DNA from: an uncultured delta proteobacterium
Lineage (GTDB): Bacteria; Myxococcota_A; Polyangia; Haliangiales; Haliangiaceae
NCBI GenBank assembly: GCA_963764695.1
Contig: CAVXTW010000015.1
Span: forward strand, 157,845 to 221,844
DNA: 64,000 nt
Direction: 5' to 3'
Made by a program: the position numbers and the translations under genes. Of the stretch, positions 7,686 through 52,206 are shown in pieces (positions within the stretch are counted from its first letter, which is position 1; each line of letters opens with the position of its first letter). Under the pieces are notes generated by a model. That model had not been told where the DNA came from. It made no database searches and worked only from the letters and a program-made list of their open reading frames with translations.

Positions 7686-8486
7686 ATGAAGATTCAAGCG
7701 CATAACGAGCCGGTGGGAGCGCGCTGGAGCGCGGGTGGAGCGGGCTACGATCGCATCAGCCGTCAGATCGCAGACCTCATCGAGCATTGTGTGGACCGTC
7801 TCGATCCGCGCGCCGGCGAGCGCATTCTCGACCTGGCGACCGGCACCGGGTGGACGGCCCGGCGCATCCACGCGCGCGGCGCCCGCGTGATCGGCGGCGA
7901 CATCGCCGCGGGGCTCCTGGAGGCGGCGCGTGAGCTGTCCCCGAAGGAGATCGAATTTCAGCAGGTTGACGCCGAGCGCATGCCGTTCGGCGACGCAGAG
8001 TTCGACGCGCTGTCGTCGACGTGCGGCGTGCAGTTCGCGAGCAAGCCGGACCTGGCCGCCGCCGAGATCGGCCGTGTGGTGAGGCGCGGCGGGCGCATCG
8101 CCCTCGGGCTGTGGGTCCACGACGGCGCCCTCGCCGACATGTTCAAGGTCATCAAGGCGTACATGCCGGCCCCGGCCGACCCGAGCAAGGCTCCGCCGTC
8201 GCCGTTCGAGTGGGGCCGCCCGGAGCGCGTCCGCGAGCTCCTGGGCACGGACTTCGATCTCAAGTTCGAGCGCGCCACGTCGTTCTATCGCGAGCCGCAC
8301 CCCGAGGACGCATGGTCGGCCTTCTACGGCGGCTACGGCCCGGTCAGGATGCTCGCCGATTCGCTCGAGCCGGAGCGCCGCGAGTCGTTCCAGCGCGAGT
8401 TCATCGCCTTCCACGCCCGCCACATGACGGACTGGGGCATGCTGGTGCGGCGCGACTACTGGATCGTCGGCGGCATCCGGCTCTGA
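7686..8486 (+). CDS. class I SAM-dependent methyltransferase
   Basis: The SAM-binding motif ILDLATGTGWTARRI is followed by ARVIGGDIA and PFGDAEFDALSSTC motifs typical of class I methyltransferases. It occupies the 3' end of a long shadow ORF. ATG 7686 is preceded by an AAGGAA RBS; ATG 7650 is an alternative start. Confidence 0.8.
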   Translation: MKIQAHNEPVGARWSAGGAGYDRISRQIADLIEHCVDRLDPRAGERILDLATGTGWTARRIHARGARVIGGDIAAGLLEAARELSPKEIEFQQVDAERMPFGDAEFDALSSTCGVQFASKPDLAAAEIGRVVRRGGRIALGLWVHDGALADMFKVIKAYMPAPADPSKAPPSPFEWGRPERVRELLGTDFDLKFERATSFYREPHPEDAWSAFYGGYGPVRMLADSLEPERRESFQREFIAFHARHMTDWGMLVRRDYWIVGGIRL

Positions 8487-9064
8487 TCGGTTCCCCGCGC
8501 GCCCGGTCGACGCAGCGCGTACTGGCGCTGCACGACCGGCGCGCCGCGCGAGCGCGAGTGCACCTGCACGTCGCGCAGGTGCCCGAAGCCGAGCCGGCGC
8601 AGGATGCGCCCCGACGCGGCGTTGTCCTCGGCGTGGCCGGCGACCAGCTCCGCGAGCTCGAGCTCGTCGAAGGCGAAGCGGACCAGCGCGCTCGCCGCCT
8701 CGGACGCGTAGCCGCGTCCCCAGCAGGACGGGTCGAACCAGTAGCCGAGCTCGCCGGTGGCACCGGAGATCTCGTCGATGTCGGCGAGGCCGATCATGTG
8801 GCGGTCCAGCGTGACGGCGAAGCGAAAGGCGGTGCCGGAGGTCCACTCGCCGGCATGGGAGGCGAACCAGGCGTCCATCCCCCCGCGGTCCGGCGGCCAC
8901 GAGGCCTGGCGCAGCATGCGCGTGACCTCCCAGCTCGACTGCACCTCGAACGCGCGGCCGGCATCGTCGGCCTCGCTCGGGCGCAGGAGGAGGCGCGGCG
9001 TGGCGATCGTCGTGGTGCGCGGCGGCTGCATCGCGTGAGTTTCTCCGTGGGGATGGTCGGACAT
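8456..9064 (-). CDS. GNAT family N-acetyltransferase (RimJ/RimL-like)
   Basis: The translation shows the GNAT fold signature IGLADIDEISGATGELGYWFDPSCWGRGYASEAASALVRFAFDEL. Its 3' end overlaps the convergent methyltransferase gene by about 30 bp. Confidence 0.8.
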   Translation of the reverse strand: MSDHPHGETHAMQPPRTTTIATPRLLLRPSEADDAGRAFEVQSSWEVTRMLRQASWPPDRGGMDAWFASHAGEWTSGTAFRFAVTLDRHMIGLADIDEISGATGELGYWFDPSCWGRGYASEAASALVRFAFDELELAELVAGHAEDNAASGRILRRLGFGHLRDVQVHSRSRGAPVVQRQYALRRPGARGTDQSRMPPTIQ

Positions 9065-10587: not shown

Positions 10588-11640
10588 TCAGGTCTCGAAC
10601 GGGTTGAACGTGTAGTCGAAGCTGACCTCCTCCGGGATGGTGAAGTACTCGGTGACCAGCCCGGCCGGATCGCGCGCCATGTCGCCGCGGCGAGGCACGT
10701 CGTTGTGATCGTCCCAGCCCCAGGGCGGGTTGGCGGCGTTCGTGTCGCACGCGGTCGGGCCGGCGCCGCAGCCGCCGGAGCTGTTGCCCGAGAAGGTCCC
10801 GAAGCTCGAGAACAGCGACGTGTTGTTGCGCAGACTCCACAGCCCGCCGGACGCCACGATGTCGATCAGCCGGTAGCGAACGCCGCGATCGTTGGGACCC
10901 GACGGAACCTCGGCGAGGCTGGACGATGGATAGTAGGAGACGCCGTCGCCGTTGATGTCGTAGTACGGGCGGGCCTTGAGACCGTGGCCCTTGGCCTCCT
11001 GCGCGGTGACCGGGTGCGGGCGCCCGCTCCAGTTCTCCATCGACAGGGTTCCGTCGAGGTCCTCGCCACCCTCCTCCCAGTCGGTGCTGGCCGGCAGGTA
11101 CGAGAAGAAGTCGCGGTGGGCGACGGTGACTGCCGACTTGAGGTCCCCGTAGGGCGAGCCGTCGCGGGCCACGGTCAGCATCACGCCCTCGGAGTCGTTC
11201 TCGTGCTCCGAGTCGAGCCAGGAGTCGGACCAGTCGCGCGGGTGGAAGAACATGTAGACGATGAACCAGTGCGTCTCCGTCTCGACGACCGAGAAGTAGA
11301 CGTACGCGGCAAGCGAGGAGGTCGAGCTGCCGGCGTGGTCCCAGTTGTCGTTGCCGACGAAGTTTCCGTCGAAGTTGACCCGCGCGATGTAGTCGGCGCG
11401 CCCGCCCAGCGCGTGGGAACCGGTCTGATCGACGTCCTGGTAGTGGATGGGCGCCCAGCGAAGCGCGAGCTCGGCGCGGTCGGCTGGAGTGCCGGCCGAC
11501 AGCGCCAGGGCCGTGGAGTCGATCTCCTCCTCGTCCCCCATCTCGGCGCATCCCCACGGAGCCGCCAGGAGGATCGCGGCCAGAGCGCAGGCGCACGTCC
11601 CGCGGCTCGATGTCGGTCGGCATCTCGGGTCCAGGCGCAT
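10588..11640 (-). CDS. secreted hypothetical protein with a Vps62/DUF946-like domain
   Basis: The signal peptide MRLDPRCRPTSSRGTCACALAAILLAAPWGCAE precedes the mature region. Motifs THWFIVYMFFHPRDWSDSWLDSEHENDSEGVMLTV and NWSGRPHPVTAQEAKGHGLKARPYY resemble the conserved Vps62/DUF946 blocks (recalled, not searched). Only the 3' 351 codons of the 805-codon ORF are real; the rest is antisense to the adaptor gene. Confidence 0.55.
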   Translation of the reverse strand: MRLDPRCRPTSSRGTCACALAAILLAAPWGCAEMGDEEEIDSTALALSAGTPADRAELALRWAPIHYQDVDQTGSHALGGRADYIARVNFDGNFVGNDNWDHAGSSTSSLAAYVYFSVVETETHWFIVYMFFHPRDWSDSWLDSEHENDSEGVMLTVARDGSPYGDLKSAVTVAHRDFFSYLPASTDWEEGGEDLDGTLSMENWSGRPHPVTAQEAKGHGLKARPYYDINGDGVSYYPSSSLAEVPSGPNDRGVRYRLIDIVASGGLWSLRNNTSLFSSFGTFSGNSSGGCGAGPTACDTNAANPPWGWDDHNDVPRRGDMARDPAGLVTEYFTIPEEVSFDYTFNPFET

Positions 11641-11663
11641 GGACGGTCTCCCCCCGATCGCAG

Positions 11664-11675
11664 TGGTTCGAACCA
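11664..11675. promoter_or_regulatory. perfect 12-bp palindrome TGGTTCGAACCA in a divergent intergenic region
   Basis: TGGTTCGAACCA equals its own reverse complement. It sits about 25-35 bp upstream of the Vps62-like gene start and 170 bp upstream of the heavy-metal efflux adaptor gene. Confidence 0.25.
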
Positions 11676-11847
11676 GTAGATGCGAAACGAGGCAGGCGTC
11701 ACAAGGGAACGCTGTGCGCCGGTGTGACCGCGAGGCGCTCGCTGGCCGTGGCCTGGCCCCGTCGAGCGGAGGCCACGAGGGCATGCCGCGGCGCGCAATT
11801 GCTGCGTCATCGCAGACGAACCGCCAGGCGCCGCCAGCATTTCGTGG

Positions 11848-13152
11848 TTGAAGGCGTCGATCCGTCCGCCTACGTTCGAACGACGGGAGGTTTCGCGGAT
11901 GGCGCTCGCCCGGCGAAGCGGACGTGTGGAGGATGGTGTGCCCGCGTCGGACGAAGCGAGCGCGCCGTCGAGGTTCGTCGCCGCCGCGCGCTGGACGCTG
12001 GTGGCCGCGACGGCCGCCCTGGCGGTCTACTCGGTCGCGCGCGCGACCGGGCTGTTCGACGCAGCGTCCGCGGCAACCGCCGGGCAGTACGTCTGCCCGA
12101 TGCACCCGGAGGTGACCAGCTCGCAGCCGGCGCTCTGCCCGGTGTGCAACATGCGGCTGGAGGCGCGTGCGCAGGCTCCTTCGGCCGATTCGACCACTGC
12201 GCCGCGCGCGGTGCCGGTTCGTCGCAGGCAGGTGACGCGGACGTTCGCCGCGCCCGCCGCCCTGGTCGTGCCGGACGGGCACCTGGTCTCTGTCTCCGCC
12301 CGCGCCCAGGGCTGGATCGCGACGCTGCCGGTCGCCGAGGTCGGCCGCCGCGTCGAGCGCGGGCAGGTGCTGGCCACCCTCGACAGCCCGGACCTGTTCC
12401 GCCTGCAGCAGAAGTACCTCAACGCGGTGCGCTGGAGCCGCGCCGGCCAGCCCAACGTGCAGCCCAGCCACGACGGAGACTCGACCGGCGATCTGGTCGC
12501 CGAGGCGCGCACCCAGCTGGGCCTGGCCGGACTCTCCGGCCCGGACATCGACGCCATCGTCGCCGGCGGCACGCCGCGGCGCGCGGTGGCCCTGCGCTCG
12601 CCCATCGACGGCGTCGTGATCCGCAAGCAGGCCGACCGGGGCGGGTTCGCGGCCGTCGGACAGGAGCTGTTCGCGGTCGCCGACCTCGGCACCATGTGGG
12701 CGGTGGCGGAGGTGCCCGAGAGCAGCACCGCTCGACTCGGCGTCGGCGAGCGCGTCCGCGTCGAGCTCGCGGCCGGCCCCGCCATCGACGGAGCCATCGC
12801 CTTCATCCATCCCACCGTCGACGAGGCGAGCCGGACCGTGAGCGTCCGCGTCGAGCTGCCCAACCGCGACGGCGCGCTGCGCCCCGGCACGTCCGCCACC
12901 GTCCACCTCGCGAGCGCGCCGGTCGAGGTGCAGGTGGTGCCGGCCGCCAGCGTTGTCGACACCGGCTCGCGCCCGATCGTCTACGTGGCGCGCGACGGCC
13001 GCCACGAGCCGCGCGCGGTCGTGCTCGGCGCGCGCATCGACGACGACGTCGAGGTGGTGAGCGGCCTGGCCGCCGGCGAGCTGGTCGTCGGCGACGGCGC
13101 CTTCCTCCTGGAGTCCGAGAGCCGCCGGCGCGCGGCCCCCGCGGCGCCGTGA
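11848..13152 (+). CDS. efflux RND transporter periplasmic adaptor subunit, heavy-metal type (CusB/CzcB-like) with N-terminal metal-binding motif
   Basis: A YVCPMHPEVTSSQPALCPVCNMRL heavy-metal binding motif is followed by HlyD-type beta-barrel and lipoyl segments. It is 434 residues and its stop overlaps the next start as GTGA. Confidence 0.85.
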   Translation: MKASIRPPTFERREVSRMALARRSGRVEDGVPASDEASAPSRFVAAARWTLVAATAALAVYSVARATGLFDAASAATAGQYVCPMHPEVTSSQPALCPVCNMRLEARAQAPSADSTTAPRAVPVRRRQVTRTFAAPAALVVPDGHLVSVSARAQGWIATLPVAEVGRRVERGQVLATLDSPDLFRLQQKYLNAVRWSRAGQPNVQPSHDGDSTGDLVAEARTQLGLAGLSGPDIDAIVAGGTPRRAVALRSPIDGVVIRKQADRGGFAAVGQELFAVADLGTMWAVAEVPESSTARLGVGERVRVELAAGPAIDGAIAFIHPTVDEASRTVSVRVELPNRDGALRPGTSATVHLASAPVEVQVVPAASVVDTGSRPIVYVARDGRHEPRAVVLGARIDDDVEVVSGLAAGELVVGDGAFLLESESRRRAAPAAP

Positions 13153-16100
13153 TCGCGGCGATCCTCGACTGGTCGGCGCGTCACCGCGCCAAGGTCCTGG
13201 TGGCGACGTCGCTGGTCGCCCTGGCGGCCTGGCTCGGCATCGATCGGCTGGCCATCGACGCCAGGCCGGATCACGCCGACCGCCAGGTGATCGTCGTCGG
13301 CGAGTGGCCCGGTCGCAGCGCCAGCCTGGTCGAGACCAGGCTGACCGGCGTCCTCAGCGCGGGCCTGGTCGGCCTGCCGTCCGTCGGTGCGGTGCGCGGA
13401 TCGTCGATGACGGGGATGTCGTTCGTCCACCTCGTGCTCGAGGACGGGGCCGACATCGGCGCGACGAGGACGCGCGTGTCCGAGCAGCTCGACGCGCTGC
13501 GCTCGCAGCTGCCCGAGGAGGCGACCGCGACGCTCGGCCCGGACGCCAGCGCGGTCGGCTGGGTCTATCAGTATGCCCTTGTCGATCGGGCCGGCCGCCT
13601 GGACCAGCTGCGCGCCTTTCAGGACCAGACCCTGCGGCCCGCGCTGGCGTCGCTTCCGGGCGTGGCCGAGGTCGCCGCGGTCGGCGGCCACGTGCGCCAG
13701 TTCGACGTCACCGTCGATCCGCGTCGCCTGGCCGCACGCGAGGTCCGGCTGTCCGAGGTGATGGAGGCCCTGCGTGCGGCCAACCTCGAGTCCGGCGGTC
13801 AGTCACTGGAGCTGGCCGGGCGCGAGGTGACGGTGCGAGGTCGCGGCGCGGTCGCGCGGCTCGCCGATCTCGAGACCGCGGTGGTGCGCGGCGGCCCGCC
13901 GCCGGTCCTGGTGCGCGATGTGGCCACCGTCGCCCTCGGTCCGGCCCCGCGCCGCGGGCTGGCCGACTGGAACGGCGAGGGCGAGGCGGTCGGCGGCATC
14001 GTGATCATGCGCCAGGGCGAGAACGCGCTTCGCGTGATCGACGCCGTCGAGGAGAAGCTCGCCGCCCTGCGTCCTGGCATGCCGCCTGGTGTCGACCTGC
14101 ACGTCGCCTACGACCGCTCGAGCCTGATCCGCCGCGCGGTCGACACCCTGCGCGTCGCGCTGCTCGAGGAGGGGCTGGCGGTCTCGCTGTTCATCCTGCT
14201 CTTCCTGCTCCACCTGCGCAGCGCGCTCCTGCCCGCGCTCTCGCTGCCGCTGGTGGCGCTGCTCAGCGTGCTGCCCATGGTGCTGTTCGACGTGCCGGTG
14301 ACGATCATGAGCCTGGGCGGCATCGCCATCGCGCTGGGCGCCGCCATCGACGCCGAGATCGTCATGATCGAGGCTTGCCACCGACGGCTCGAGAGCGCGC
14401 CGCCCGGCGCCGACCGGCGACGGCTGCTGGCCGCGGCCGCCCGCCAGGTGACGCCGGCCATCTTCTTCTCGCTGCTGGTGGTGGCGGTGGCGTTCCTGCC
14501 GGTCTTCGCCCTGACCGGCGAGGCGGCGCGCCTGTTCCGGCCGCTGGCCTTCACCAAGACCGCCGTGATGGTGCTGTCCGCGATCCTGTCGATCACCTTC
14601 GCGCCAGCGCTGCGCGACTTCCTGCTGCGCGGCCCGATACGCCCGGAATCCGTCCATCCGGTGTCGCGCCTGTGCCGCCGCGTGTACGGGCCGTTCGTGC
14701 TGGCCGCCCTGCGCAACCCGCGCTCGACCCTGCTCATCGGCCTCTTCGCCGTCATCTCGGCGGTGCCGGTCGCCATGCGCCTGGGGCACGAGTTCATGCC
14801 TCCGCTCGACGAGGGCGACCTGCTCTACATGCCCACGACCTCGGCGAACATCTCGATGGAGGAGGCCAAGCGGCAGCTGCAGCGACAGGACCAGGTGCTG
14901 CGATCGTTCCCGGAGGTGGCCTCGGTGTTCGGCAAGGTCGGACGGGCCGCCTCCGCCACCGATCCGGCGCCCATCACCATGATCGAGACCACCGTCCGTC
15001 TGCGCCCCCGGAGCGACTGGCGCCCCGAGATGCGCAGCACCGACGATCTGGTGCGGGCCATGGACGCGCGCATGCGCTTTCCCGGCTGGACCAACGCGTG
15101 GACCATGCCGATCCAGGGCCGCGTCAACATGCTGAGCACCGGCATGCGCACGCCGGTGGGCCTGAAGATCTTCGGCCCCGACCGGGCGGCGATCGATCGG
15201 GCGGGCGCGGCGCTCGAGCGCGTGCTCGCCTCGGTGCCGGGTACCCGCGGCGCCTTCTTCGAGCGCACCGCCGGCGGCCTGCATGCCGACATCGTTCCGG
15301 ATCGCGAGGCGCTGGCCCGCTCCGGCGTCCGCGTCTCCGATCTCATGGATATCGTCAACGCGGTCGGCGGCCGCATGGTCGGCCACGCGATCGACGGCCG
15401 CGCCCGCCTTCCCATCCGTGTCCGCTTCCCGCCCGATACGGTCGCCGACCTCGACAGCCTGCGCAGCCTTCCGGTACCGGTCGCCAGTGCGAAGACGCGG
15501 GCCATGCAGCCGTCGTCGCCGTCACCGTCGCCGGCGAGCGACGACATGCCCATGAGCGACATGGTGCGGGCCGCGCCCCAGCCGCCCACGCCGTCGCGCC
15601 TGCGCCTCGCCCACGTCCCGCTGTCGCAGCTCGCGCGCGTCAACCTGGTCGAGGACGCGGCCATGATCCGCAGCGAGGGCGGCCAGCCGGTCGGCTACCT
15701 GCACCTGGACGTCGATCCGGCGACGACCGACCTGGCCGGATACGTCGCCGCCGGGGCCGCCGCCGTCGACCGGGCGCGCTCCAGCGGCGCGCTCACCCTG
15801 GGGGTCGGGGTCCACCTGGCCTGGGCCGGCCAGCACGAGCAGCTGCTCGAGACCGAGGCGCGCCTCAAGATCATCGTCCCGCTGACCCTGCTGGCGATCT
15901 TCCTGCTGCTCTATCTCCACTTCCGCAGCGCGGTGGAGACGGCGATGGTGCTGCTCTCGGTCCCCTTCGCGCTGGTGGGCAGCTTCTGGCTGCTCGACCT
16001 GCTCGACTACCACCTGTCCACGGCGGTCTGGATCGGCCTGATTGCCGTGGTCGGACTGGCCGCCCAGACCGGCGTCGTGATGGTCGTCTACATCGACGAG

Positions 16101-16583
16101 GCGTACCTGCGCCGCAAGCGCGCCGGCCTGATCCGGTCGCTCGACGACATCATCGCCGCTCACCTCGAGGGGACCGTGCAGCGCCTGCGGCCCAAGCTGA
16201 TGACGGTCGGCGCGATGCTGGCCGGCCTGCTGCCGCTGCTGTGGGCCACGTCGTCGGGCGCAGACGTCATGAAGCGCATCGCCGCGCCGATGGTCGGGGG
16301 CCTGATCACCTCCGCGTTCCTGACCCTGGAGGTCATCCCGGTCGTCTACACGTACTGGCGCGCCGAGCAGCTCCTGTGGGAGCGCGCCGCCGGTAGCGCA
16401 TCTTTCGTCCGGCTGCAGCGCGCGGCCCGGCTCACAGGCTGGGCCGCCCTGGCGACGCTGCTCGTCGCGGTCCTGCCTCTCTATGTCTCCATGCCGCGGC
16501 CGGCGACCATCGCCGCGCTCACCACGGCGATCGCCCTGACCATCGGCTTCGCCCTCCGCTATCGCCGCCTGCGCGCCGCGTAG
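13149..16583 (+). CDS. CusA/CzcA family heavy-metal efflux RND transporter
   Basis: Twelve-TM RND architecture with large periplasmic loops. The N-terminus IAAILDWSARHRAKVLVATSLVALAAWLGIDRLAIDARPD is typical of the family. GTG start 13149 overlaps the adaptor stop. It carries a Ser/Pro/Met-rich insertion PSSPSPSPASDDMPMSDM. Confidence 0.85.
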   Translation: MIAAILDWSARHRAKVLVATSLVALAAWLGIDRLAIDARPDHADRQVIVVGEWPGRSASLVETRLTGVLSAGLVGLPSVGAVRGSSMTGMSFVHLVLEDGADIGATRTRVSEQLDALRSQLPEEATATLGPDASAVGWVYQYALVDRAGRLDQLRAFQDQTLRPALASLPGVAEVAAVGGHVRQFDVTVDPRRLAAREVRLSEVMEALRAANLESGGQSLELAGREVTVRGRGAVARLADLETAVVRGGPPPVLVRDVATVALGPAPRRGLADWNGEGEAVGGIVIMRQGENALRVIDAVEEKLAALRPGMPPGVDLHVAYDRSSLIRRAVDTLRVALLEEGLAVSLFILLFLLHLRSALLPALSLPLVALLSVLPMVLFDVPVTIMSLGGIAIALGAAIDAEIVMIEACHRRLESAPPGADRRRLLAAAARQVTPAIFFSLLVVAVAFLPVFALTGEAARLFRPLAFTKTAVMVLSAILSITFAPALRDFLLRGPIRPESVHPVSRLCRRVYGPFVLAALRNPRSTLLIGLFAVISAVPVAMRLGHEFMPPLDEGDLLYMPTTSANISMEEAKRQLQRQDQVLRSFPEVASVFGKVGRAASATDPAPITMIETTVRLRPRSDWRPEMRSTDDLVRAMDARMRFPGWTNAWTMPIQGRVNMLSTGMRTPVGLKIFGPDRAAIDRAGAALERVLASVPGTRGAFFERTAGGLHADIVPDREALARSGVRVSDLMDIVNAVGGRMVGHAIDGRARLPIRVRFPPDTVADLDSLRSLPVPVASAKTRAMQPSSPSPSPASDDMPMSDMVRAAPQPPTPSRLRLAHVPLSQLARVNLVEDAAMIRSEGGQPVGYLHLDVDPATTDLAGYVAAGAAAVDRARSSGALTLGVGVHLAWAGQHEQLLETEARLKIIVPLTLLAIFLLLYLHFRSAVETAMVLLSVPFALVGSFWLLDLLDYHLSTAVWIGLIAVVGLAAQTGVVMVVYIDEAYLRRKRAGLIRSLDDIIAAHLEGTVQRLRPKLMTVGAMLAGLLPLLWATSSGADVMKRIAAPMVGGLITSAFLTLEVIPVVYTYWRAEQLLWERAAGSASFVRLQRAARLTGWAALATLLVAVLPLYVSMPRPATIAALTTAIALTIGFALRYRRLRAA

Positions 16584-28006: not shown

Positions 28007-28084
28007 GCGCGAGACATTAGCTGACTATTGGGCTCACGAGGCCGTCTTGCCTTCCGCGGTCCGGTCGCCCACGATCCGGACCGC

Positions 28085-29287
28085 GTGCTGCGCAGTCGGG
28101 CACCCACGTCGCACCTCGCACTCCTCTGGGCCGGCCAGCTGCTGTCGGCCATCGGCGATCAGCTGCACCAGGTCGCGCTGATGTGGATCGCGGTCTCCGC
28201 GGTGGGGGCCGGCGCGGGGCTTGTCGCGGCGGCGGGGACGGCCGCGCGGCTCGTGTTCGGCCTGCTCGGCGGCGTCTACTCCGACAGGTGGAATCGACGG
28301 CGCGCCATGATCGCGTCGGACCTCGCGCGCGCGGCGCTGGTCGCCACCCTCGCGATCGCCGGCGCTGGAGGGCCGCTCGCGCTGTGGCATCTCGCGGCGA
28401 TCGCCGCCGCGCTGGGCGCGCTCGACGCTCTCTTTCAGCCGGCCTTGCAGGCCAGCCTCCCCGCGCTGGCCCCCGAGCCGTCGCGACTCCAGCGGATCAA
28501 CGCCGCGCTCAACATCAACCATCGCGCGGCGCTCGTCGTCGGCCCCATGCTCACCGGAGCGCTGCTCGGCGTCATCCCGATCACGCAGTTCTTCGCCGTC
28601 AACGGCGTGAGCTTCGTGGCGTCGGCCGCCGCGATCGCCTCGCTGGGACGCCACTACCGCTGGAAGGGCGGCGCTGATGACCCGGAGGTCGGTCCGCGCC
28701 CCATCCTGCGCGAGCTCGCCGACGCCGGACGCGTGGTCGCCGCGCACCCGTGGATGCCGGCCGCGCTCGTCGCGTTCGTCTGCTCGAACGTGGCGTGGAG
28801 CGCCGTGGTGGTCGGGGCACCGCTTTTGGCTCGCGATGTCCTCGGCGGCGGCCCGGAGACCTACGGCTACGTGATGGGCGGGTACGGCCTGGGCAACGTG
28901 CTCAGCAACGTCCTGCTCGGCGTCGTGACGATCAGGCGGCGCGCGGCCGTCTTCTTCGCCGGCGGGCTGGTGTTCTCGCTCGGTGTGGCCGCGCTCGGGT
29001 CGACCACCACCCTGGCCCAGGCGATGGCGATCGCCGCCATCGCCGCCCTGGGCGGGCCGATGCAGGATCTGATGCTGCTCTCTGCCGTGCAGCTCGACGT
29101 CCCTCCCGACAAGATCGGCAAGGTCTTCGCCTTCCGCACCACGATCTCGCAGACCGGCCTGGGTCTCGGCCTGGTCATCGCGGCGCCGGTGCTCGCGTCG
29201 CTGTCCATCCCGCTGGCCATGGCGCTGCTCTCGGCGCCGGCCGCGCTGCTCTCGCTGGCTGCGCTGTTCCGCTACGGGCGTCGTTGA
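28085..29287 (+). CDS. MFS transporter (EntS/YbdA-like exporter family)
   Basis: Twelve predicted TM helices and the MFS motif LLGGVYSDRWNRRRAMI between TM2 and TM3. GTG 28085 gives a plausible start; the ORF track's TTG 28028 is an alternative. Confidence 0.75.
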   Translation: MLRSRAPTSHLALLWAGQLLSAIGDQLHQVALMWIAVSAVGAGAGLVAAAGTAARLVFGLLGGVYSDRWNRRRAMIASDLARAALVATLAIAGAGGPLALWHLAAIAAALGALDALFQPALQASLPALAPEPSRLQRINAALNINHRAALVVGPMLTGALLGVIPITQFFAVNGVSFVASAAAIASLGRHYRWKGGADDPEVGPRPILRELADAGRVVAAHPWMPAALVAFVCSNVAWSAVVVGAPLLARDVLGGGPETYGYVMGGYGLGNVLSNVLLGVVTIRRRAAVFFAGGLVFSLGVAALGSTTTLAQAMAIAAIAALGGPMQDLMLLSAVQLDVPPDKIGKVFAFRTTISQTGLGLGLVIAAPVLASLSIPLAMALLSAPAALLSLAALFRYGRR

Positions 29288-29575
29288 TCGAAGGGCGAGC
29301 CGCCGGGGCGGCATCCTGGCCGCCATCTCGCTCGCAAATTGTGCGGCCAGCGCGCAGCGACAATCACGCGCGTCCGGACGCCGCACCGCGCGGGTCATGA
29401 GTCCGGGACCTACGCGCCGACGACACACGATCATCGCTCGCAGAGATCATTGTCGGCTGGCTTCCGATCAACGATTCGCTCGGTGGCCTGTGCGCGTGCT
29501 GCTAGCGTGATTCGCGCGCGGGTGGTGGTGGCCGACTGCCGCGCAGCTCGTCCGCGGCCCGTAGCAAGGAGCTCC

Positions 29576-30415
29576 ATGGAACTCGTCTCCGCGTCGCCCG
29601 GTCTCGATTTCGAGCCCGCTCCCATGATCCACGAGCTGGTGGCGCGCGACATGCCCGCGCCGGAGTACGTGGACGCTCTGCAGCGCTATGCGCGCCTGTC
29701 GCGCGCCGCCCGCCATCCTCTGCTCGAGGTCGTGGCCGGCGGAGCGTTCGCCTCGCACCGCGCGGCCATGCGCAGCTTCTTCCGCGAGTACTACCACTAC
29801 AGCCGCCGCTTCACGCGCTTCCTCGCGTCGGTGATGGCCGAGCTGGAGGAGCCGGAGCACCGCGCGGCGCTCGTCCCCAACACCGCCGAGGAGGCCGGCC
29901 ATCTCGACGACCGGCACGTGATCGAGCTCATCGCCGCCGGCATCGATCCGGTCAACGTGGCCGCACCGCACCCGCAGCTGTTTCGCCGCTTCCTGGTCGC
30001 CATCGGCCTGGCTCCCGCCGAGCTCGATCGCGCCACGCCGCACGTGGCCACCGCGGCGTGGATCCGCTCGTTCGAGGCGCTGTGCCGCACCGACGAGGCG
30101 ACAGCGGTCGGCGCCCTCGGCATCGCCACCGAGGGGATCGTGCGCGACATGTACCAGCACGTCCTGGCCGGCATCCGGCGCGCATGGCCGGATCTGAGCG
30201 CCCGCGACCGCGCCTTCTTCGAGCTGCACGCGCTTGTCAACGACGATCATGCCGAGACCCTGCGCACCATCGCCATCGCCCTGGCCACCGAGCCGGCCGG
30301 GCGGCACCGGCTTGCCGTCGGCGTGCTCGGCGCGCTCGACGCGCGGGCCAGCTTCTTCGATCAGATGCAGCTGTTCCTGCTCTCGATCGAGAGGCGCGGA
30401 GAGGACCGCTCGTGA
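29576..30415 (+). CDS. heme-oxygenase-like fold iron-containing redox enzyme (HDO superfamily; TenA/PqqC/CADD-like)
   Basis: An all-helical protein with paired carboxylate/His ligand motifs EEAGHLDDRH and FFELHALVNDDHAETL, consistent with a diiron site of the heme-oxygenase-like oxidase family. ATG 29576 follows an AAGGAG RBS. The stop overlaps the next gene as GTGA. Confidence 0.7.
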   Translation: MELVSASPGLDFEPAPMIHELVARDMPAPEYVDALQRYARLSRAARHPLLEVVAGGAFASHRAAMRSFFREYYHYSRRFTRFLASVMAELEEPEHRAALVPNTAEEAGHLDDRHVIELIAAGIDPVNVAAPHPQLFRRFLVAIGLAPAELDRATPHVATAAWIRSFEALCRTDEATAVGALGIATEGIVRDMYQHVLAGIRRAWPDLSARDRAFFELHALVNDDHAETLRTIAIALATEPAGRHRLAVGVLGALDARASFFDQMQLFLLSIERRGEDRS

Positions 30416-30861
30416 CCGACAGGTTCACCGATCCTGCGCGCAATCGCGAGGGGCTCGAGCCGCGTCCGTCGCGGGGGCCTGTGCCGGAGCTGCTGCACAC
30501 CGCTGTCGTGTCAACAGGCGCCGCCCTCGCCTTCTCGCGCGAGCGCGGCCACCCGGTGTATCCTGTGCGCGTGCCGGCCTGCTCGCTCAGCATGACGGTC
30601 GGCGTGCTCGAGCCGGGCGCCCGCACCGTCAATCATCGCCACGCCTACGAGGCGATCATGCTCGTGCTGGCCGGCCACGGCCACAGCGTCGTGGAGGGGC
30701 GCCGCTTCGACTGGAAGGCGGGCGATGCGCTCTACGCGCCGCCGTGGTGCTGGCACCAGCACATCGCCGATGCGGACTGCCACGTCGAGTACGTGACCGC
30801 GACCAACATGCCGATGCTCGAGTCGCTGGGCCAGACGGTGATGCGCCAGGAGGAGCGCTGA
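30412..30861 (+). CDS. cupin domain metalloprotein
   Basis: Cupin motif 1 is VNHRHAYEAIMLVLAGHG (HxH...E...G) and motif 2 is GDALYAPPWCWHQH. It is 149 residues; the GTG start overlaps the upstream stop. Confidence 0.75.
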   Translation: MTDRFTDPARNREGLEPRPSRGPVPELLHTAVVSTGAALAFSRERGHPVYPVRVPACSLSMTVGVLEPGARTVNHRHAYEAIMLVLAGHGHSVVEGRRFDWKAGDALYAPPWCWHQHIADADCHVEYVTATNMPMLESLGQTVMRQEER

Positions 30862-30880
30862 TGTCACGCCGGGGGCGCAG

Positions 30881-31207
30881 GTGATCGCGCGGCGCTGGAC
30901 GGCCAGCGCCAGCGACGAGGGCGCGCGCGCCTACGTCAGCTTCTTCGAGCGGGTGCTGGTTCCCCAGCTCGATCGCATCGACGGGCACCGCGGCGCGCTG
31001 GTCCTGACGCGTCCGGCCGACGATGGAGACGGCGTCAACATCACGGTGCTCACGTTCTGGGCATCCATGGAGGCGATCTCTCGCTTCGCCGGATCGACGC
31101 CGGATCTGGCCGTGGTCGAGCCGGACGCGCGCGCCGTGCTGCTGGCGTTCGACGAGCGCGTCGAGCACGAGGAGGTCGCGGTGCACACGCTGCGGGCGCC
31201 GCGGTAG
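30881..31207 (+). CDS. antibiotic biosynthesis monooxygenase (ABM)/Dabb-like small protein
   Basis: A 108-residue ferredoxin-like fold pattern (YVSFFERVLVPQLDRIDGHRGALVLTRP...NITVLTFWASMEAISRFAG) fits the ABM family. It is the third gene of the operon. Confidence 0.55.
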   Translation: MIARRWTASASDEGARAYVSFFERVLVPQLDRIDGHRGALVLTRPADDGDGVNITVLTFWASMEAISRFAGSTPDLAVVEPDARAVLLAFDERVEHEEVAVHTLRAPR

Positions 31208-49580: not shown

Positions 49581-49690
49581 TACCAGATCGGACAATTGCT
49601 TTAATATCATCTGGTTGAATCGGCGATTGCCGCATCCCTTACCACGATCGCAACGGGCATCCAAGCTGCTCCACTCCTGACCGCCTTCTC

Positions 49691-51011
49691 ATGGAACCCA
49701 TCACTGGTAGTTCGAGTCCGCCGTCGGATCTGTTCATCGTGCTCGAGCCGTTTCGCGCCGGGTTCGCCGACTTCGTGCGCGCGCTCGAACCGCTCAACGG
49801 CACCGCCAGCGACGGGACGCTGCTGGGCAGCGCCGACGTCTACTACCGGGCCGATACCGACATCGCGCTCCTGACCATCCGCCTCGACAAGGGCGGCATC
49901 ACGCCGCAGAAGCTGGCCTGGCTCACGTCGGTGGCGGCGCGCGCCGATCTGCCGGTGCTGGATCCGTCGCGGCTCGGCTTCAGCGACCGCAGGGCGTTCT
50001 ACGAGGACTACCTGCCCAACTACCGGGTGCGCGTCGAGGCGCGCGGCGGACCTCAAGAAGCTCTCGAGGAGCTGGCCCGCCTGCTGGCGCTGCCGGACGC
50101 GCCGCCCTTGCGGCCGGCCTCGTCACCGTCGGCCCGCCCGGCGCCGCAGGTGAGCAGCGAGGACTCCAGCCGCAGGACGGTCGAGACCGCGCCGCGCGCG
50201 CCCAGTGGCACCGAGCCGAACGGGCGCTACGGCTCGGCCCGCACCGTCGGCGAGAGCATCGGCGCGCGCTCGGCCAGCCGCCGCACCGCCGCCCCCCAGG
50301 CGTCGGGTCGCACGCCCCAGGCCACCAGCGCGCCGCAGCAGCCGACCGGCGCGCCGCCCGTCCGCGACTCCAGCGGCACCGGCAGGGACGGGCGGCAGAA
50401 GACGCTCGAGTACCAGTCGGCGCGCCGGCAGGGTCGCCGCCGGCCAGAGCCGGCGCTCACCACCCCCGAGGGGCAGCGCGTGCGCGAGCCGGACGAGTCG
50501 TCGCCCGCGGGTGCCAAGCCGGCCGGGCAGGTCACGCCGCGCGGCGCCGCGGTTTACCCGCTCGCGCGCGAGCTGTCCGGGCCGGTCACGCCACCGCCGG
50601 CGACGCCGACCGGCGTGGGCGCGCCGTCGGCCGCGGCATCCAAGGTGATCGTGCCGATGCCGGCATCGCCGCGCAGTACCGGCATCCCGATCATGATGCC
50701 GTCGACCGACTCGGACATGCCGCCGGGTGGGGTCACGCCGACCGGCACGTCGGCGTCGTCGCCGTCCGCGTCGGTGCCTCCGCCCTCGTCCAGCCGCGAC
50801 ACCGGGCCCGGGGCGGCGCTTCGCCGCGACACCGGCTCCGGGGCAACAGCCCTGCCCCGCCGCGACACCGGCTCCGGGGCATCCCCGCTTCCCCGCCGCG
50901 ACACCGATCCGGGCGCGCCCAGCCGCCGCGACACCGGTCCGAGCCGCGAGGTGGTCACGTCGCCGTCGCTGGCGCGCGACAGAATCCTCGGCGTCGTCGC
51001 CCGCCGGGACG
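49691..51011 (+). CDS. N-terminal part of a PilZ-domain protein gene (small folded domain plus long Ser/Pro/Thr/Arg-rich repeat region); 3' end uncertain
   Basis: Residues 1-140 look globular (DLFIVLEPFRAGFADFVRALEPL...YLPNYRVRVEARGG). About 300 low-complexity residues follow, including RRDTGxG repeats. The ORF runs on in this frame to 51262 into Arg-rich non-protein-like sequence. The PilZ part continues in the +1 frame from 51012. Confidence 0.5.
50791..50950 (+). repeat. five tandem copies of a roughly 36-bp (one copy 30-bp) repeat CGCCGCGACACCGGCTCCGGGGC inside the PilZ-protein gene
   Basis: Copies begin near 50791, 50822, 50859, 50895 and 50925. They encode the RRDTGSGA repeats. Confidence 0.6.
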
Positions 51012-52049
51012 ATGGCACCCGAGGGCAGCATCCCGCCGCCCACCGACGGCGTCCCGCGCAAGCGGCAGGCGCTGATCGTCGAGGACGAGGAGGCTCCACC
51101 GCTGCAAGTGCGCTTCCTGCGCGGCGACACGTGGGCGCCGGGCCGCCTGCGTGCGCTCAGCCTGCAGGGCGCGCGGCTGGCCGCGGCCGCTCCGCCGCGC
51201 CTGGGCGACCTGGTCCAGCTCGCGCTCGGGCTCGACCACATGGACGTGCACGTCAGCGGTGAGGTCACGCAGGTGACCGGCGCGGCCCAGGCCGCCGGCA
51301 GCGGCGAGCCGAGCGGCTTCGCCGTGCACTTCCGGCCGTTCGAGACCGGCGTGCGCGGCAAGCTGGTCACCCTGCTCAAGCGGGCCAAGCAGAGCGGCAT
51401 CTCGCTGCGGCCGCCGCCGCCGCGCGCGTCGGTGCGCTTTCCGGTCAGGTGGCCCACCGGCGTGATCACCTCGTGGGGCGAGCTCAGCACCGCATCGCTC
51501 GACGTGTCGCGCAGCGGCCTGTTCATCGCGGCCGGCACGGTGATAGGAGCGCGCGAGATCATCTTCCACCTGCCGATGGACACCAGCGGGCGCGCGCTGT
51601 CCGGGCGCGCCGAGGTGGCGCGCGAGGTGACCGAGGAGATGGCGACCCAGCGCGGCCTCACCCGCGGCTACGGCGTGCGCATCGTCAACTTCACGCGCAA
51701 CGACGGCGAGCGCTACGACTCGTTCCTCGAGCGCATCCGCCAGCGCACCGAGAAGCGGGTCATGATCGCCGCGCGCCGCGAGCGCGCCACCGACCTCGGG
51801 CGCGGCCTGATGGCGGCCGGCTACGCGGTGCACTCGGGCAACGATCTGGTCGCGCTGGCCGAGTCGATGAACGAGGCCGGGCCGCCGCCCGACGCGGCGC
51901 TCATCGACGCGACTCTTCTGACCTCGGATGCGAACGCCGCGGCGCTCAAGCGCGCCCTGCACACCAAGCAGGTGCCGTGCTTGACCCTGAACAACGAGCA
52001 GCCGGAGCGCGCACGCGCGGTGGTCGATCACCTGCTGCAGATCACGTAA
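51012..52049 (+). CDS. tandem PilZ-domain region plus C-terminal receiver-like domain (probably the C-terminal half of the upstream gene)
   Basis: PilZ motif 1 is PRKRQ followed by LSLQGA. PilZ motif 2 is RASVR followed by DVSRSG, the canonical RxxxR...DxSxxG. A C-terminal ~100 residues resemble a degenerate receiver. ATG 51012 is in the +1 frame relative to the upstream ORF. Confidence 0.6.
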   Translation: MAPEGSIPPPTDGVPRKRQALIVEDEEAPPLQVRFLRGDTWAPGRLRALSLQGARLAAAAPPRLGDLVQLALGLDHMDVHVSGEVTQVTGAAQAAGSGEPSGFAVHFRPFETGVRGKLVTLLKRAKQSGISLRPPPPRASVRFPVRWPTGVITSWGELSTASLDVSRSGLFIAAGTVIGAREIIFHLPMDTSGRALSGRAEVAREVTEEMATQRGLTRGYGVRIVNFTRNDGERYDSFLERIRQRTEKRVMIAARRERATDLGRGLMAAGYAVHSGNDLVALAESMNEAGPPPDAALIDATLLTSDANAAALKRALHTKQVPCLTLNNEQPERARAVVDHLLQIT

Positions 52050-52206
52050 GCGGCGCGGGAACGGCGCGGGTGCCGACGGAACAGGTTTGCCGGCTCGTGT
52101 GAGCCAGGTTTCCCCACGTCCACGTGATCACTTGCCCGCGGCTGCCTGCCAACTACACTGGATCGACGGCCCGTCCATCCGTCGTCAGCCCGAGGTCCCT
52201 TCCAGC

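Follow-up and report, generated by a model that had tools for sequence, protein, structure and literature searches.

What do two overlapping metalloenzyme genes make together, and do they amount to a split counterpart of SznF? These questions are raised by a locus in a 64,000-nucleotide stretch of DNA from an uncultured delta proteobacterium (contig CAVXTW010000015.1, positions 157,845 to 221,844; G+C content approximately 70%), which is referred to here as the window. The two genes encode a heme-oxygenase-like diiron oxidase/oxygenase (HDO) and a single-domain cupin (monocupin), together called the pair. We propose, with a probability of roughly 0.4, that the pair is an O2-dependent N-oxygenation and C–N cleavage module that would make nitrite from an amino group.

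Conservation of the HDO–cupin pair

The pair and one codon of special interest within it lie at the following positions:
29576–30415, + strand: HDO, 279 aa (PF14518, 2.4e-23, 83.3 bits against a cut-off of 28.9)
30412–30861, + strand: monocupin, 149 aa (PF07883, 4.5e-14)
30239–30241, + strand: codon AAC for Asn222 of the HDO, at the fifth metal ligand position (equivalent to CADD Asp178), from homologue comparison

Direct reading of the sequence confirmed the overlap between the two genes reported in a first-pass annotation of the locus, with the HDO stop codon TGA (30413–30415) and the cupin start codon GTG (30412–30414) sharing the string GTGA. An AGGAG ribosome-binding site, also read directly, lies 5–6 nt 5' of the HDO ATG.

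A scan that started from the HDO, with one genome per species, yielded 48 loci. In 18 of these, mostly from Flavobacteriales, the HDO was accompanied by a methyltransferase and a TauD-type oxygenase with no family cupin; one locus of this type (L030) had a weak cupin-like match upstream. Among the other 30 loci, a family cupin was adjacent in 23 and a weaker cupin-like match in 5 (28/30). The remaining two were a locus cut by a contig end and L005/L065, in which an unrelated 104-aa open reading frame (ORF) replaced the cupin; the ORF in L065 was considered as a candidate cupin and rejected. The reciprocal scan, which started from the cupin in metagenomes, yielded 53 loci, and an adjacent HDO was present in 33 of the 39 that could be evaluated. 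Organisms in the HDO-first scan include Myxococcota, Gamma- and Betaproteobacteria, Bdellovibrionales, Thermodesulfobacteriota, and cyanobacteria. The closest genome (L003) is an uncultured "delta proteobacterium" metagenome-assembled genome (MAG), and other relatives include Kofleriaceae, Polyangiaceae, and Haliangium, which makes Myxococcota the probable phylum of the window.

The usual gene order was HDO followed by cupin, with inverted or divergent arrangements in a few loci (e.g., L018, L019, and L031), and at least four proteins (P0027, P0029, P0031, and P0183) were natural HDO–cupin fusions. HDO–cupin adjacency is far beyond chance. Because the overlapping genes are translationally coupled, their adjacency is kept across phyla, and the two are fused in some organisms, the view that HDO and cupin form a functionally coupled unit, already taken in the first-pass annotation, is supported.

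An exhaustive HMMER search with the HDO profile recovered 168 representative clusters at E ≤ 1e-30 and 1739 at E ≤ 1e-3, counts that include methyltransferase–TauD and kinase-fused relatives. The former make up a sister clade, mostly from marine Flavobacteriales (L032–L048, L022, and L030; HDO at approximately 8001–8711 in most), in which an S-adenosylmethionine-dependent methyltransferase and a TauD-type iron/2-oxoglutarate oxygenase lie directly 3' of the HDO in place of the cupin. A pabB-like gene was found approximately 5 kb upstream on the other strand, and L022 encodes an HDO–methyltransferase fusion. HDO, methyltransferase, and TauD domains were united in single large proteins in P0230, P0238, P0251, P0255, P0265, P0267, P0294, and P0319, and P0230, P0238, P0251, and P0319 also contained EF-hand calcium-binding domains; these proteins give the impression of eukaryote-style counterparts of the flavobacterial three-gene cassette that are regulated by calcium. 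In P0224, P0292, P0312, and P0246, the HDO domain was located at the C-terminus of hybrid histidine kinases or combined with receiver, Hpt, and methyltransferase domains. The kinase-fused proteins comprised HNOBA, HisKA, HATPase, receiver, and Hpt domains, which suggests that some family members are wired into signaling. A Pfam search of the N-terminal extensions (approximately 140–190 aa) of several HDO homologues (P0181 and P0217) detected no domain and thus offered no hint of function.

Sequence and fold relationships of the two proteins

The HDO was assigned to its family by a PF14518 match above the gathering score together with a heme-oxygenase-like helical fold. Its AlphaFold2 model was all-helical, with a predicted local distance difference test score of 93, and the HDO fold began near residue 18. 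Foldseek analysis of the model gave BesC, CADD, UndA, and HrmI as the best matches, with identities of 17–20% in the structural alignments with BesC and HrmI. A single-sequence search identified CADD/CT610 (1e-6) and BesC as the nearest solved relatives. When a family profile built from 35 sequences (alignment A1) was searched against all PDB sequences at E ≤ 10, it matched CADD (1e-18), BesC (1e-14), NePabS (5e-14), and HrmI (9e-7), as well as FlcD and PqqC; SznF was not recovered. The pair's HDO shares its fold and the ligand spacing H-x3-D-x2-H with CADD and NePabS, its closest solved sequence relatives, but it lacks their sacrificial Tyr and Lys, carries a 25-residue insertion after the first Glu ligand, and has a cupin partner. 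BesC and HrmI, the latter an amine-to-nitro N-oxygenase, were the next closest by profile and fold.

By homology to CADD, with the numbering offset taken from an ungapped alignment, the metal ligand positions of the HDO are E106, H132, E186, H218, 222, and H225. The family keeps E106, H132, E186, H218, D222, and H225, with 26 invariant residues in alignment A1, and the insertion between the first Glu and His ligands measures 25 residues in the window HDO and 25–26 in the family. Of the six canonical diiron ligands, which the first-pass annotation proposed to confirm by alignment, five are intact in the window HDO; position 222 is Asn and not Asp. Asp occupied this position in each of the 73 homologues checked, among them P0001 with 95% identity, and Asn occurred in the window HDO alone. 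The homologue motif is LHxxxDDxH; the related loci checked read FFELHALVDDDH, whereas the window reads FFELHALVNDDH, and a GAC codon for Asp would differ from the AAC of the window by one base.

The metal motifs of the cupin, described as intact in the first-pass annotation, proved to be so. A three-His site is predicted at H75, H77, and H115; H117, Y79, E80, R45, and H47 are also invariant, and the HRHAYE and WCWHQH motifs were unchanged in 26 cupin homologues (alignment A2). The family additionally has its own invariant N-terminal FSxERGHPV segment. The best solved relatives of the cupin, by both sequence and fold, were gentisate 1,2-dioxygenase 3bu7 (8e-21 with the single sequence; 3.6e-29 with the family profile), salicylate dioxygenase, and 5-nitrosalicylate dioxygenase, and the cupin was closer to the C-terminal domain of 3bu7 than to the catalytic N-terminal domains. 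These gentisate, salicylate, and 5-nitrosalicylate 1,2-dioxygenases share the HRH...WxH.H metal motif with the cupin. In salicylate dioxygenase numbering, we take Arg127 and His162 to be the catalytic residues. The His162 equivalent, H117, is present, whereas Arg127 aligns with Met83, and this position is Met, Leu, or Ile across the cupin family. The cupin was examined as a bona fide gentisate dioxygenase and rejected: gentisate and salicylate dioxygenases are bicupins with the catalytic Arg, whereas the 149-aa cupin is a monocupin without it, and its TIGR02272 score was 36 bits against a cut-off of 442.

A subclade of cupins with 42–45% identity was found without an adjacent HDO (L095, L108, L091, L094, L097, and L116). 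In L095/L108 (8913–12323), the cupin gene has on one side a gene for a CynR-like LysR regulator and on the other a gene whose product resembles 6-hydroxyaminopurine reductase, an enzyme that reduces N-hydroxylated compounds.

Genomic contexts of the pair in relatives

In L060/L061, the pair closes a co-directional operon. This operon starts with genes for an aspartate kinase, a GriH/BagC-like 3-amino-4-hydroxybenzoate (3,4-AHBA) synthase, a GriI/BagB-like aldolase, and an Amidohydro_2 protein, followed by a PaaK-type ligase (best match BagE/FevW, 1e-134) and an ANL enzyme (best match AvaA6 3-aminoavenalumate diazotase, 2e-135), and ends with a major facilitator superfamily (MFS) transporter, HDO, cupin, and OsmC. 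The same gene set was present in L063 (Haliangium) and, with an HDO of a divergent subfamily (24% identity, short Glu–His spacing), in L102, which additionally encodes a methyltransferase, a MauG-like peroxidase, and three bleomycin-resistance-type proteins. In the betaproteobacterial MAG locus L065, this set was found except for the cupin. L008 and L055/L067 (Stigmatella aurantiaca DW4/3-1) carry partial versions of this AHBA-type cluster. OsmC followed the cupin more often than any other gene (L060, L061, L063, L065, L092, L104, and L111).

S. aurantiaca DW4/3-1 is a cultured, sequenced myxobacterium. Its locus L067 (CP002271, 3878604–3899134) encodes an ABC exporter, a GriI-like aldolase, an aryl-acid ligase, an aspartate kinase, a hydrolase, HDO, and cupin; a GriH-like gene is absent.

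A second type of context involves genes of p-aminobenzoate (pABA) synthesis. The gene order in L006 is pabB-like, pabA-like, HDO, cupin, and PabC-like; L049 contains a diazotase-like gene, HDO, cupin, and a PabC-like gene; and in L053 a fused PabAB lies 3 kb upstream of the pair.

Co-location with a type I ATP-dependent diazotase was observed in the relatives L060, L061, L063, L065, L102, and L049, not in the window. The diazotase homologue matched 8ztz at 4e-108, versus 2e-28 for ordinary CoA ligases. We treat 8ztz as CmaA6, since all three published residues fall into register with one offset of 16 residues; read in this way, the homologue retains His224, Phe267, and Lys533, a triad that has been shown to bind nitrous acid. 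According to the literature, such enzymes generally obtain their nitrite from CreE/CreD, and these two proteins occur in multiple clusters related to diazo compounds. The diazotase/AHBA clusters with the pair (L060, L061, L063, L065, and L102) showed no domain of the CreE or CreD type.

Further contexts were related to nitrogen oxides. L096, L098, and L099 encode a cupredoxin, the copper nitrite reductase NirK (TIGR02376, 309 bits; cut-off 296), HDO, and cupin. The start of the HDO gene overlaps the stop codon of the NirK gene. As laid out in L098 (1793–6588), and also in L096 and L099, these genes are co-directional and overlapping, and the HDO is of the short-spacing kind. In L020, a gene for a formate/nitrite transporter follows the cupin gene at a distance of 1 kb. 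In P0279, a family HDO with the same E-x25/26-H insertion and the same invariant residues is fused to a second domain that is nearest to the pyruvic oxime dioxygenases (PODs) 8IL8, 8IQA, and 8IX6 (5e-48, versus 5e-15 for fuculose aldolase). The gene after P0279 encodes an HPP-family membrane protein (L122, 3806–6027; L123, 1435–3665), and one member of this family has been shown to transport nitrite. PODs are three-His Fe(II) enzymes that convert pyruvic oxime and O2 to pyruvate and nitrite.

Proposed function and alternatives

We infer nitrite as the product because nitrite, and not a particular carbon scaffold, is the common denominator of these contexts. The HDO active-site residues did not vary among AHBA-type, pab-type, NirK-type, POD-fused, and stand-alone members, and this argues in favor of a single shared substrate. 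The amino group oxidized would be that of a small molecule of primary metabolism, with an alpha-amino acid as the most likely candidate; the nearest characterized HDOs, BesC and HrmI, use amino acids, and half of the known HDOs are N-oxygenases. In the first step, modeled on the HDO N-oxygenases HrmI, RohS, and SznF, the diiron HDO would oxidize the amine to an oxime or nitro-level intermediate. In the second step, the three-His Fe(II) cupin would use O2 to cleave C=N–OH or C–NO2 to an oxo-acid and nitrite, which is the reaction of pyruvic oxime dioxygenase. In many relatives, the nitrite would then serve an ATP-dependent diazotase acting on 3,4-AHBA or pABA. OsmC after the cupin would fit an oxygenase system that leaks peroxide.

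The pair would accordingly take the role that CreE/CreD of the aspartate–nitrosuccinate pathway have in actinomycetes. Both systems consist of two coupled enzymes in diazotase clusters that supply the distal nitrogen, as proposed here for the pair, and both occur as fusions (SpiED for CreE/CreD, P0029 for HDO–cupin). However, the two systems differ entirely in fold and cofactor: one joins a flavin monooxygenase (CreE) to a lyase of the fumarase type (CreD), and the other combines a diiron HDO with an iron cupin. The likeness to POD (8IL8) of heterotrophic nitrification consists in a three-His Fe(II) site, nitrite release from an oxime, and the fusion of a POD-like domain to a family HDO, although POD has a class II aldolase fold and the partner in the pair is a cupin. 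A wider and more tentative proposal is that the pair and its variants, HDO–POD and HDO–methyltransferase–TauD, represent an unrecognized route from amino groups to nitrite that is independent of CreE/CreD.

Several observations weigh against nitrite formation by the pair. The NirK, formate/nitrite-transporter, and POD/HPP links each come from a single lineage, and no AHBA, pab, diazotase, or nitrite gene was found in the 64 kb of the window. The betaproteobacterial MAG locus L065 contains a diazotase and an HDO without a cupin, and no diazotase was found within the available sequence of the AHBA-type clusters in L008 and L055/L067. Nitrite may also derive from primary nitrate/nitrite metabolism, as suggested for some alanosine clusters. 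The nearest relatives of the cupin act on aromatic hydroxy-acids, which resemble 3,4-AHBA. Finally, Asn222 may reflect a sequencing error or a real change that is either tolerated or inactivating, and because of this residue at a ligand position the activity of the window's own HDO copy appears uncertain.

The main alternative, unlikely in our estimate, is that the pair directly tailors an aminobenzoate. The HDO would N-oxygenate or ring-hydroxylate 3,4-AHBA or pABA in the manner of AurF, RohS, or CreL, and the gentisate-dioxygenase-like cupin would oxidize or cleave the resulting hydroxy- or nitroso-benzoate. The repeated occurrence of the pair in 3,4-AHBA (GriH/GriI-like) or pABA (pabB-, pabA-, and pabC-like) operons is consistent with this, as are the aromatic-acid dioxygenases nearest to the cupin, the synthesis of p-aminobenzoate by CADD, the nearest HDO, in its own active site, and the BagE/FevW-like ligase of the clusters, given that the ferroverdin ligase uses nitroso-hydroxybenzoate. 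However, these operons represent two different scaffolds, and in most genomes neither is nearby, yet the active-site residues are invariant. A diazotase needs a free arylamine, and N-oxygenation of the same amine conflicts with this need; moreover, the cupin is a monocupin with Met, Leu, or Ile in place of the catalytic Arg. Tailoring would also leave the NirK, POD-fusion, HPP, and formate/nitrite-transporter contexts unexplained.

In an SznF-like reaction, N-hydroxylation of a guanidine or amine by the HDO would be followed by a rearrangement on the cupin that yields an N-nitroso or diazeniumdiolate group within one substrate. The first-pass annotation pointed in this direction, and we consider it improbable. 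According to a 2026 review of HDOs, SznF is the only characterized HDO with a cupin domain, which agrees with that annotation's description of it as the only well-known pairing of the two folds. SznF and the pair both combine a heme-oxygenase-like diiron oxygenase with a three-His cupin, fused versions of the pair exist, and the SznF cupin acts on the product of its HDO. The clade in which the HDO is accompanied by a methyltransferase and TauD, a second mononuclear-iron oxygenase, recalls SznE plus SznF, and relatives of the pair are linked to N–N chemistry clusters. Nevertheless, neither protein showed a specific relationship to SznF by sequence profile or fold ranking. As with the HDO profile, SznF was not found among the listed matches of the cupin family profile, nor among the top 50 Foldseek matches of either model. 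Homology to SznF was rejected on these sequence profiles and fold searches, which for the cupin, with its three His present and invariant, gave no specific similarity; set against SznF, UndA, BesC, CADD, and PqqC, the HDO had its nearest relatives in CADD, BesC, and HrmI. SznF also possesses an N-terminal helical dimerization domain and the partner SznE, whereas the pair, with an HDO of 279 aa, has neither; no methyltransferase flanks the pair in the window, and none lies beside cupin-type pairs. In addition, the pair normally consists of two separate proteins, its HDO has the 25-residue insertion between the first two ligands, and the clusters already hold a dedicated N–N-forming diazotase. 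Judged by sequence, the pair has an architecture that works like that of SznF, yet it lies outside the SznF family. The suggestion of N-oxygenation or N–N chemistry consequently stands in part: it has indirect support from relatives in diazotase clusters and none from SznF-type homology.

The first-pass annotation also stated that no split HDO–cupin system had been characterized, and none was found in the literature searched. Searches combining PF14518 with cupin, HDO with 3,4-AHBA/GriH, and alternative nitrite sources for diazotases returned no description of the pair or cluster. GrbE/GrbD of gramibactin, which combine a different hydroxylase family with an SznF-like cupin, were considered as a known split version and rejected, as GrbE is not an HDO.

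We give little credence to a catabolic or detoxifying role, in which the HDO would hydroxylate or decarboxylate an aromatic or fatty acid and the cupin would cleave a ring as gentisate or salicylate dioxygenases do. The cupin resembles ring-cleaving dioxygenases, C–C chemistry is possible for HDOs, as in UndA and BesC, and many pair loci lie among housekeeping or regulatory genes and not in biosynthetic clusters. Against this, no maleylpyruvate isomerase- or hydrolase-type genes were found beside the pair in any locus, the contexts that recur across lineages are biosynthetic (AHBA, pab, and diazotase) or related to nitrogen oxides, and the catalytic Arg of gentisate dioxygenase is missing. A CADD-like synthase of the folate precursor p-aminobenzoate with the cupin as a helper is scarcely credible, even with CADD and NePabS as the best sequence relatives and pab genes adjacent in L006, L049, and L053, as the sacrificial Tyr27 and Lys152 of CADD are replaced by an invariant Leu50 and a variable Val196, the TIGR04305 (CADD/PabS) score of the HDO was 47.6 bits against a cut-off of 200, and the function would be redundant alongside a canonical pabABC set within one operon.

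Neighboring genes in the window

The other features of the locus are as follows:
28085–29287, + strand: MFS efflux-type transporter, 400 aa (PF07690, 9.6e-32, 110.7 bits against a cut-off of 33.4)
29288–29575, no strand: intergenic region of 288 bp between the MFS and HDO genes, 5' of the HDO gene
30881–31207, + strand: small ABM/HmoA-like alpha+beta barrel protein, 108 aa (PF03992, E = 0.011, 16.4 bits against a cut-off of 23.1)

The MFS, HDO, cupin, and ABM-like ORFs, whose coordinates agree with the first-pass annotation, are co-directional and have coding-type G+C contents at the third (0.90–0.92, with 0.92 for the ABM-like ORF) and second (0.48–0.53) codon positions. An alternative TTG start for the MFS gene lies at 28028. 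By codon-position G+C, the region 29288–29575 has non-coding character; an Rfam scan of the region 5' of the HDO gene revealed no riboswitch or known RNA at E ≤ 1, and a scan of 29288–29575 for sigma-70-like promoters and terminators found none and was uninformative. The surrounding genes of the window encode a sugar ABC transporter, a ROK regulator, a lipoprotein, and a secreted protein. The window copy of the pair is a stand-alone copy with an MFS pump 5' and an ABM-like protein 3'.

The assignment of the first gene as an MFS exporter held, with PF07690 above its gathering score. Its best NCBIfam match was TIGR00900 (DHA3-type H+ antiporter; 157 bits, below its cut-off), and the protein is EntS/Mef-like and not of the nitrate/nitrite porter type. 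The ABM-like ORF belongs, as its homologues indicate, to a real conserved small-protein family: 36 homologues were found, some named HmoA by JGI, and these homologues carry no precomputed Pfam domain. Its annotation as an ABM-type monooxygenase is therefore borne out as to a real conserved small protein and not as to the domain, since PF03992 scored below gathering; an NCBIfam scan of the protein gave no match.

We also considered MFS, HDO, cupin, and ABM-like genes as a conserved quartet, which the first-pass annotation had regarded as a compact cluster, and rejected it. In tblastn searches, the MFS gene was kept 5' of the pair in L003 (92% identity) and L069 only, and the ABM-like gene 3' of the cupin in L070 and L071 only; these four loci belong to near-identical relatives, and in L003 the cupin is 93% identical and the ABM-like gene is absent. 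Across genomes, co-occurrence thus extends to the pair and not to the quartet. Because the MFS and ABM-like genes occur in the closest relatives only, the pair is the unit and the quartet is an arrangement at the level of a species or genus. Elsewhere, non-homologous exporters repeatedly accompany the pair (MFS in L060/L061, EamA in L063, and ABC in L067), which makes export of a product plausible.

In L003 (8001–11520), an apparent frameshift divides the HDO gene into two tblastn pieces in different frames, and approximately 2.2 kb of other DNA lies in place of the window's ABM-like gene. A NIPSNAP protein is encoded after the fused HDO–cupin genes in L051 (9369–10136) and L052 (7489–8256). 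NIPSNAP and the ABM-like protein share a fold class, the dimeric alpha+beta barrel, and the two may be a recurring accessory or a coincidence. Elsewhere in the window, the segments 11379–16583 and 49600–52100 have an unusually high G+C content (0.76), with several long overlapping ORFs on both strands.

Implications

Natural products with N–N bonds, such as diazo compounds and hydrazides, are thought to depend on CreE/CreD for nitrous acid. If the pair does form nitrite, a second, unrelated metalloenzyme route would change how clusters outside actinomycetes are mined, and the HDO–POD form would be the missing enzymatic source of oxime in heterotrophic nitrification. The HDO–POD fusion beside a nitrite-transporter-type gene makes the origin of the oxime or hydroxylamine of heterotrophic nitrification directly testable, and S. 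aurantiaca DW4/3-1 is a possible experimental entry point for the pair. Even if the product is not nitrite, the pair is a widespread, tightly coupled two-metalloenzyme module with no characterized member. With nitrite as the product, it would represent a new reaction type for both the HDO and cupin superfamilies and would provide the nitrous acid for ATP-dependent diazotases in Myxococcota and Proteobacteria.

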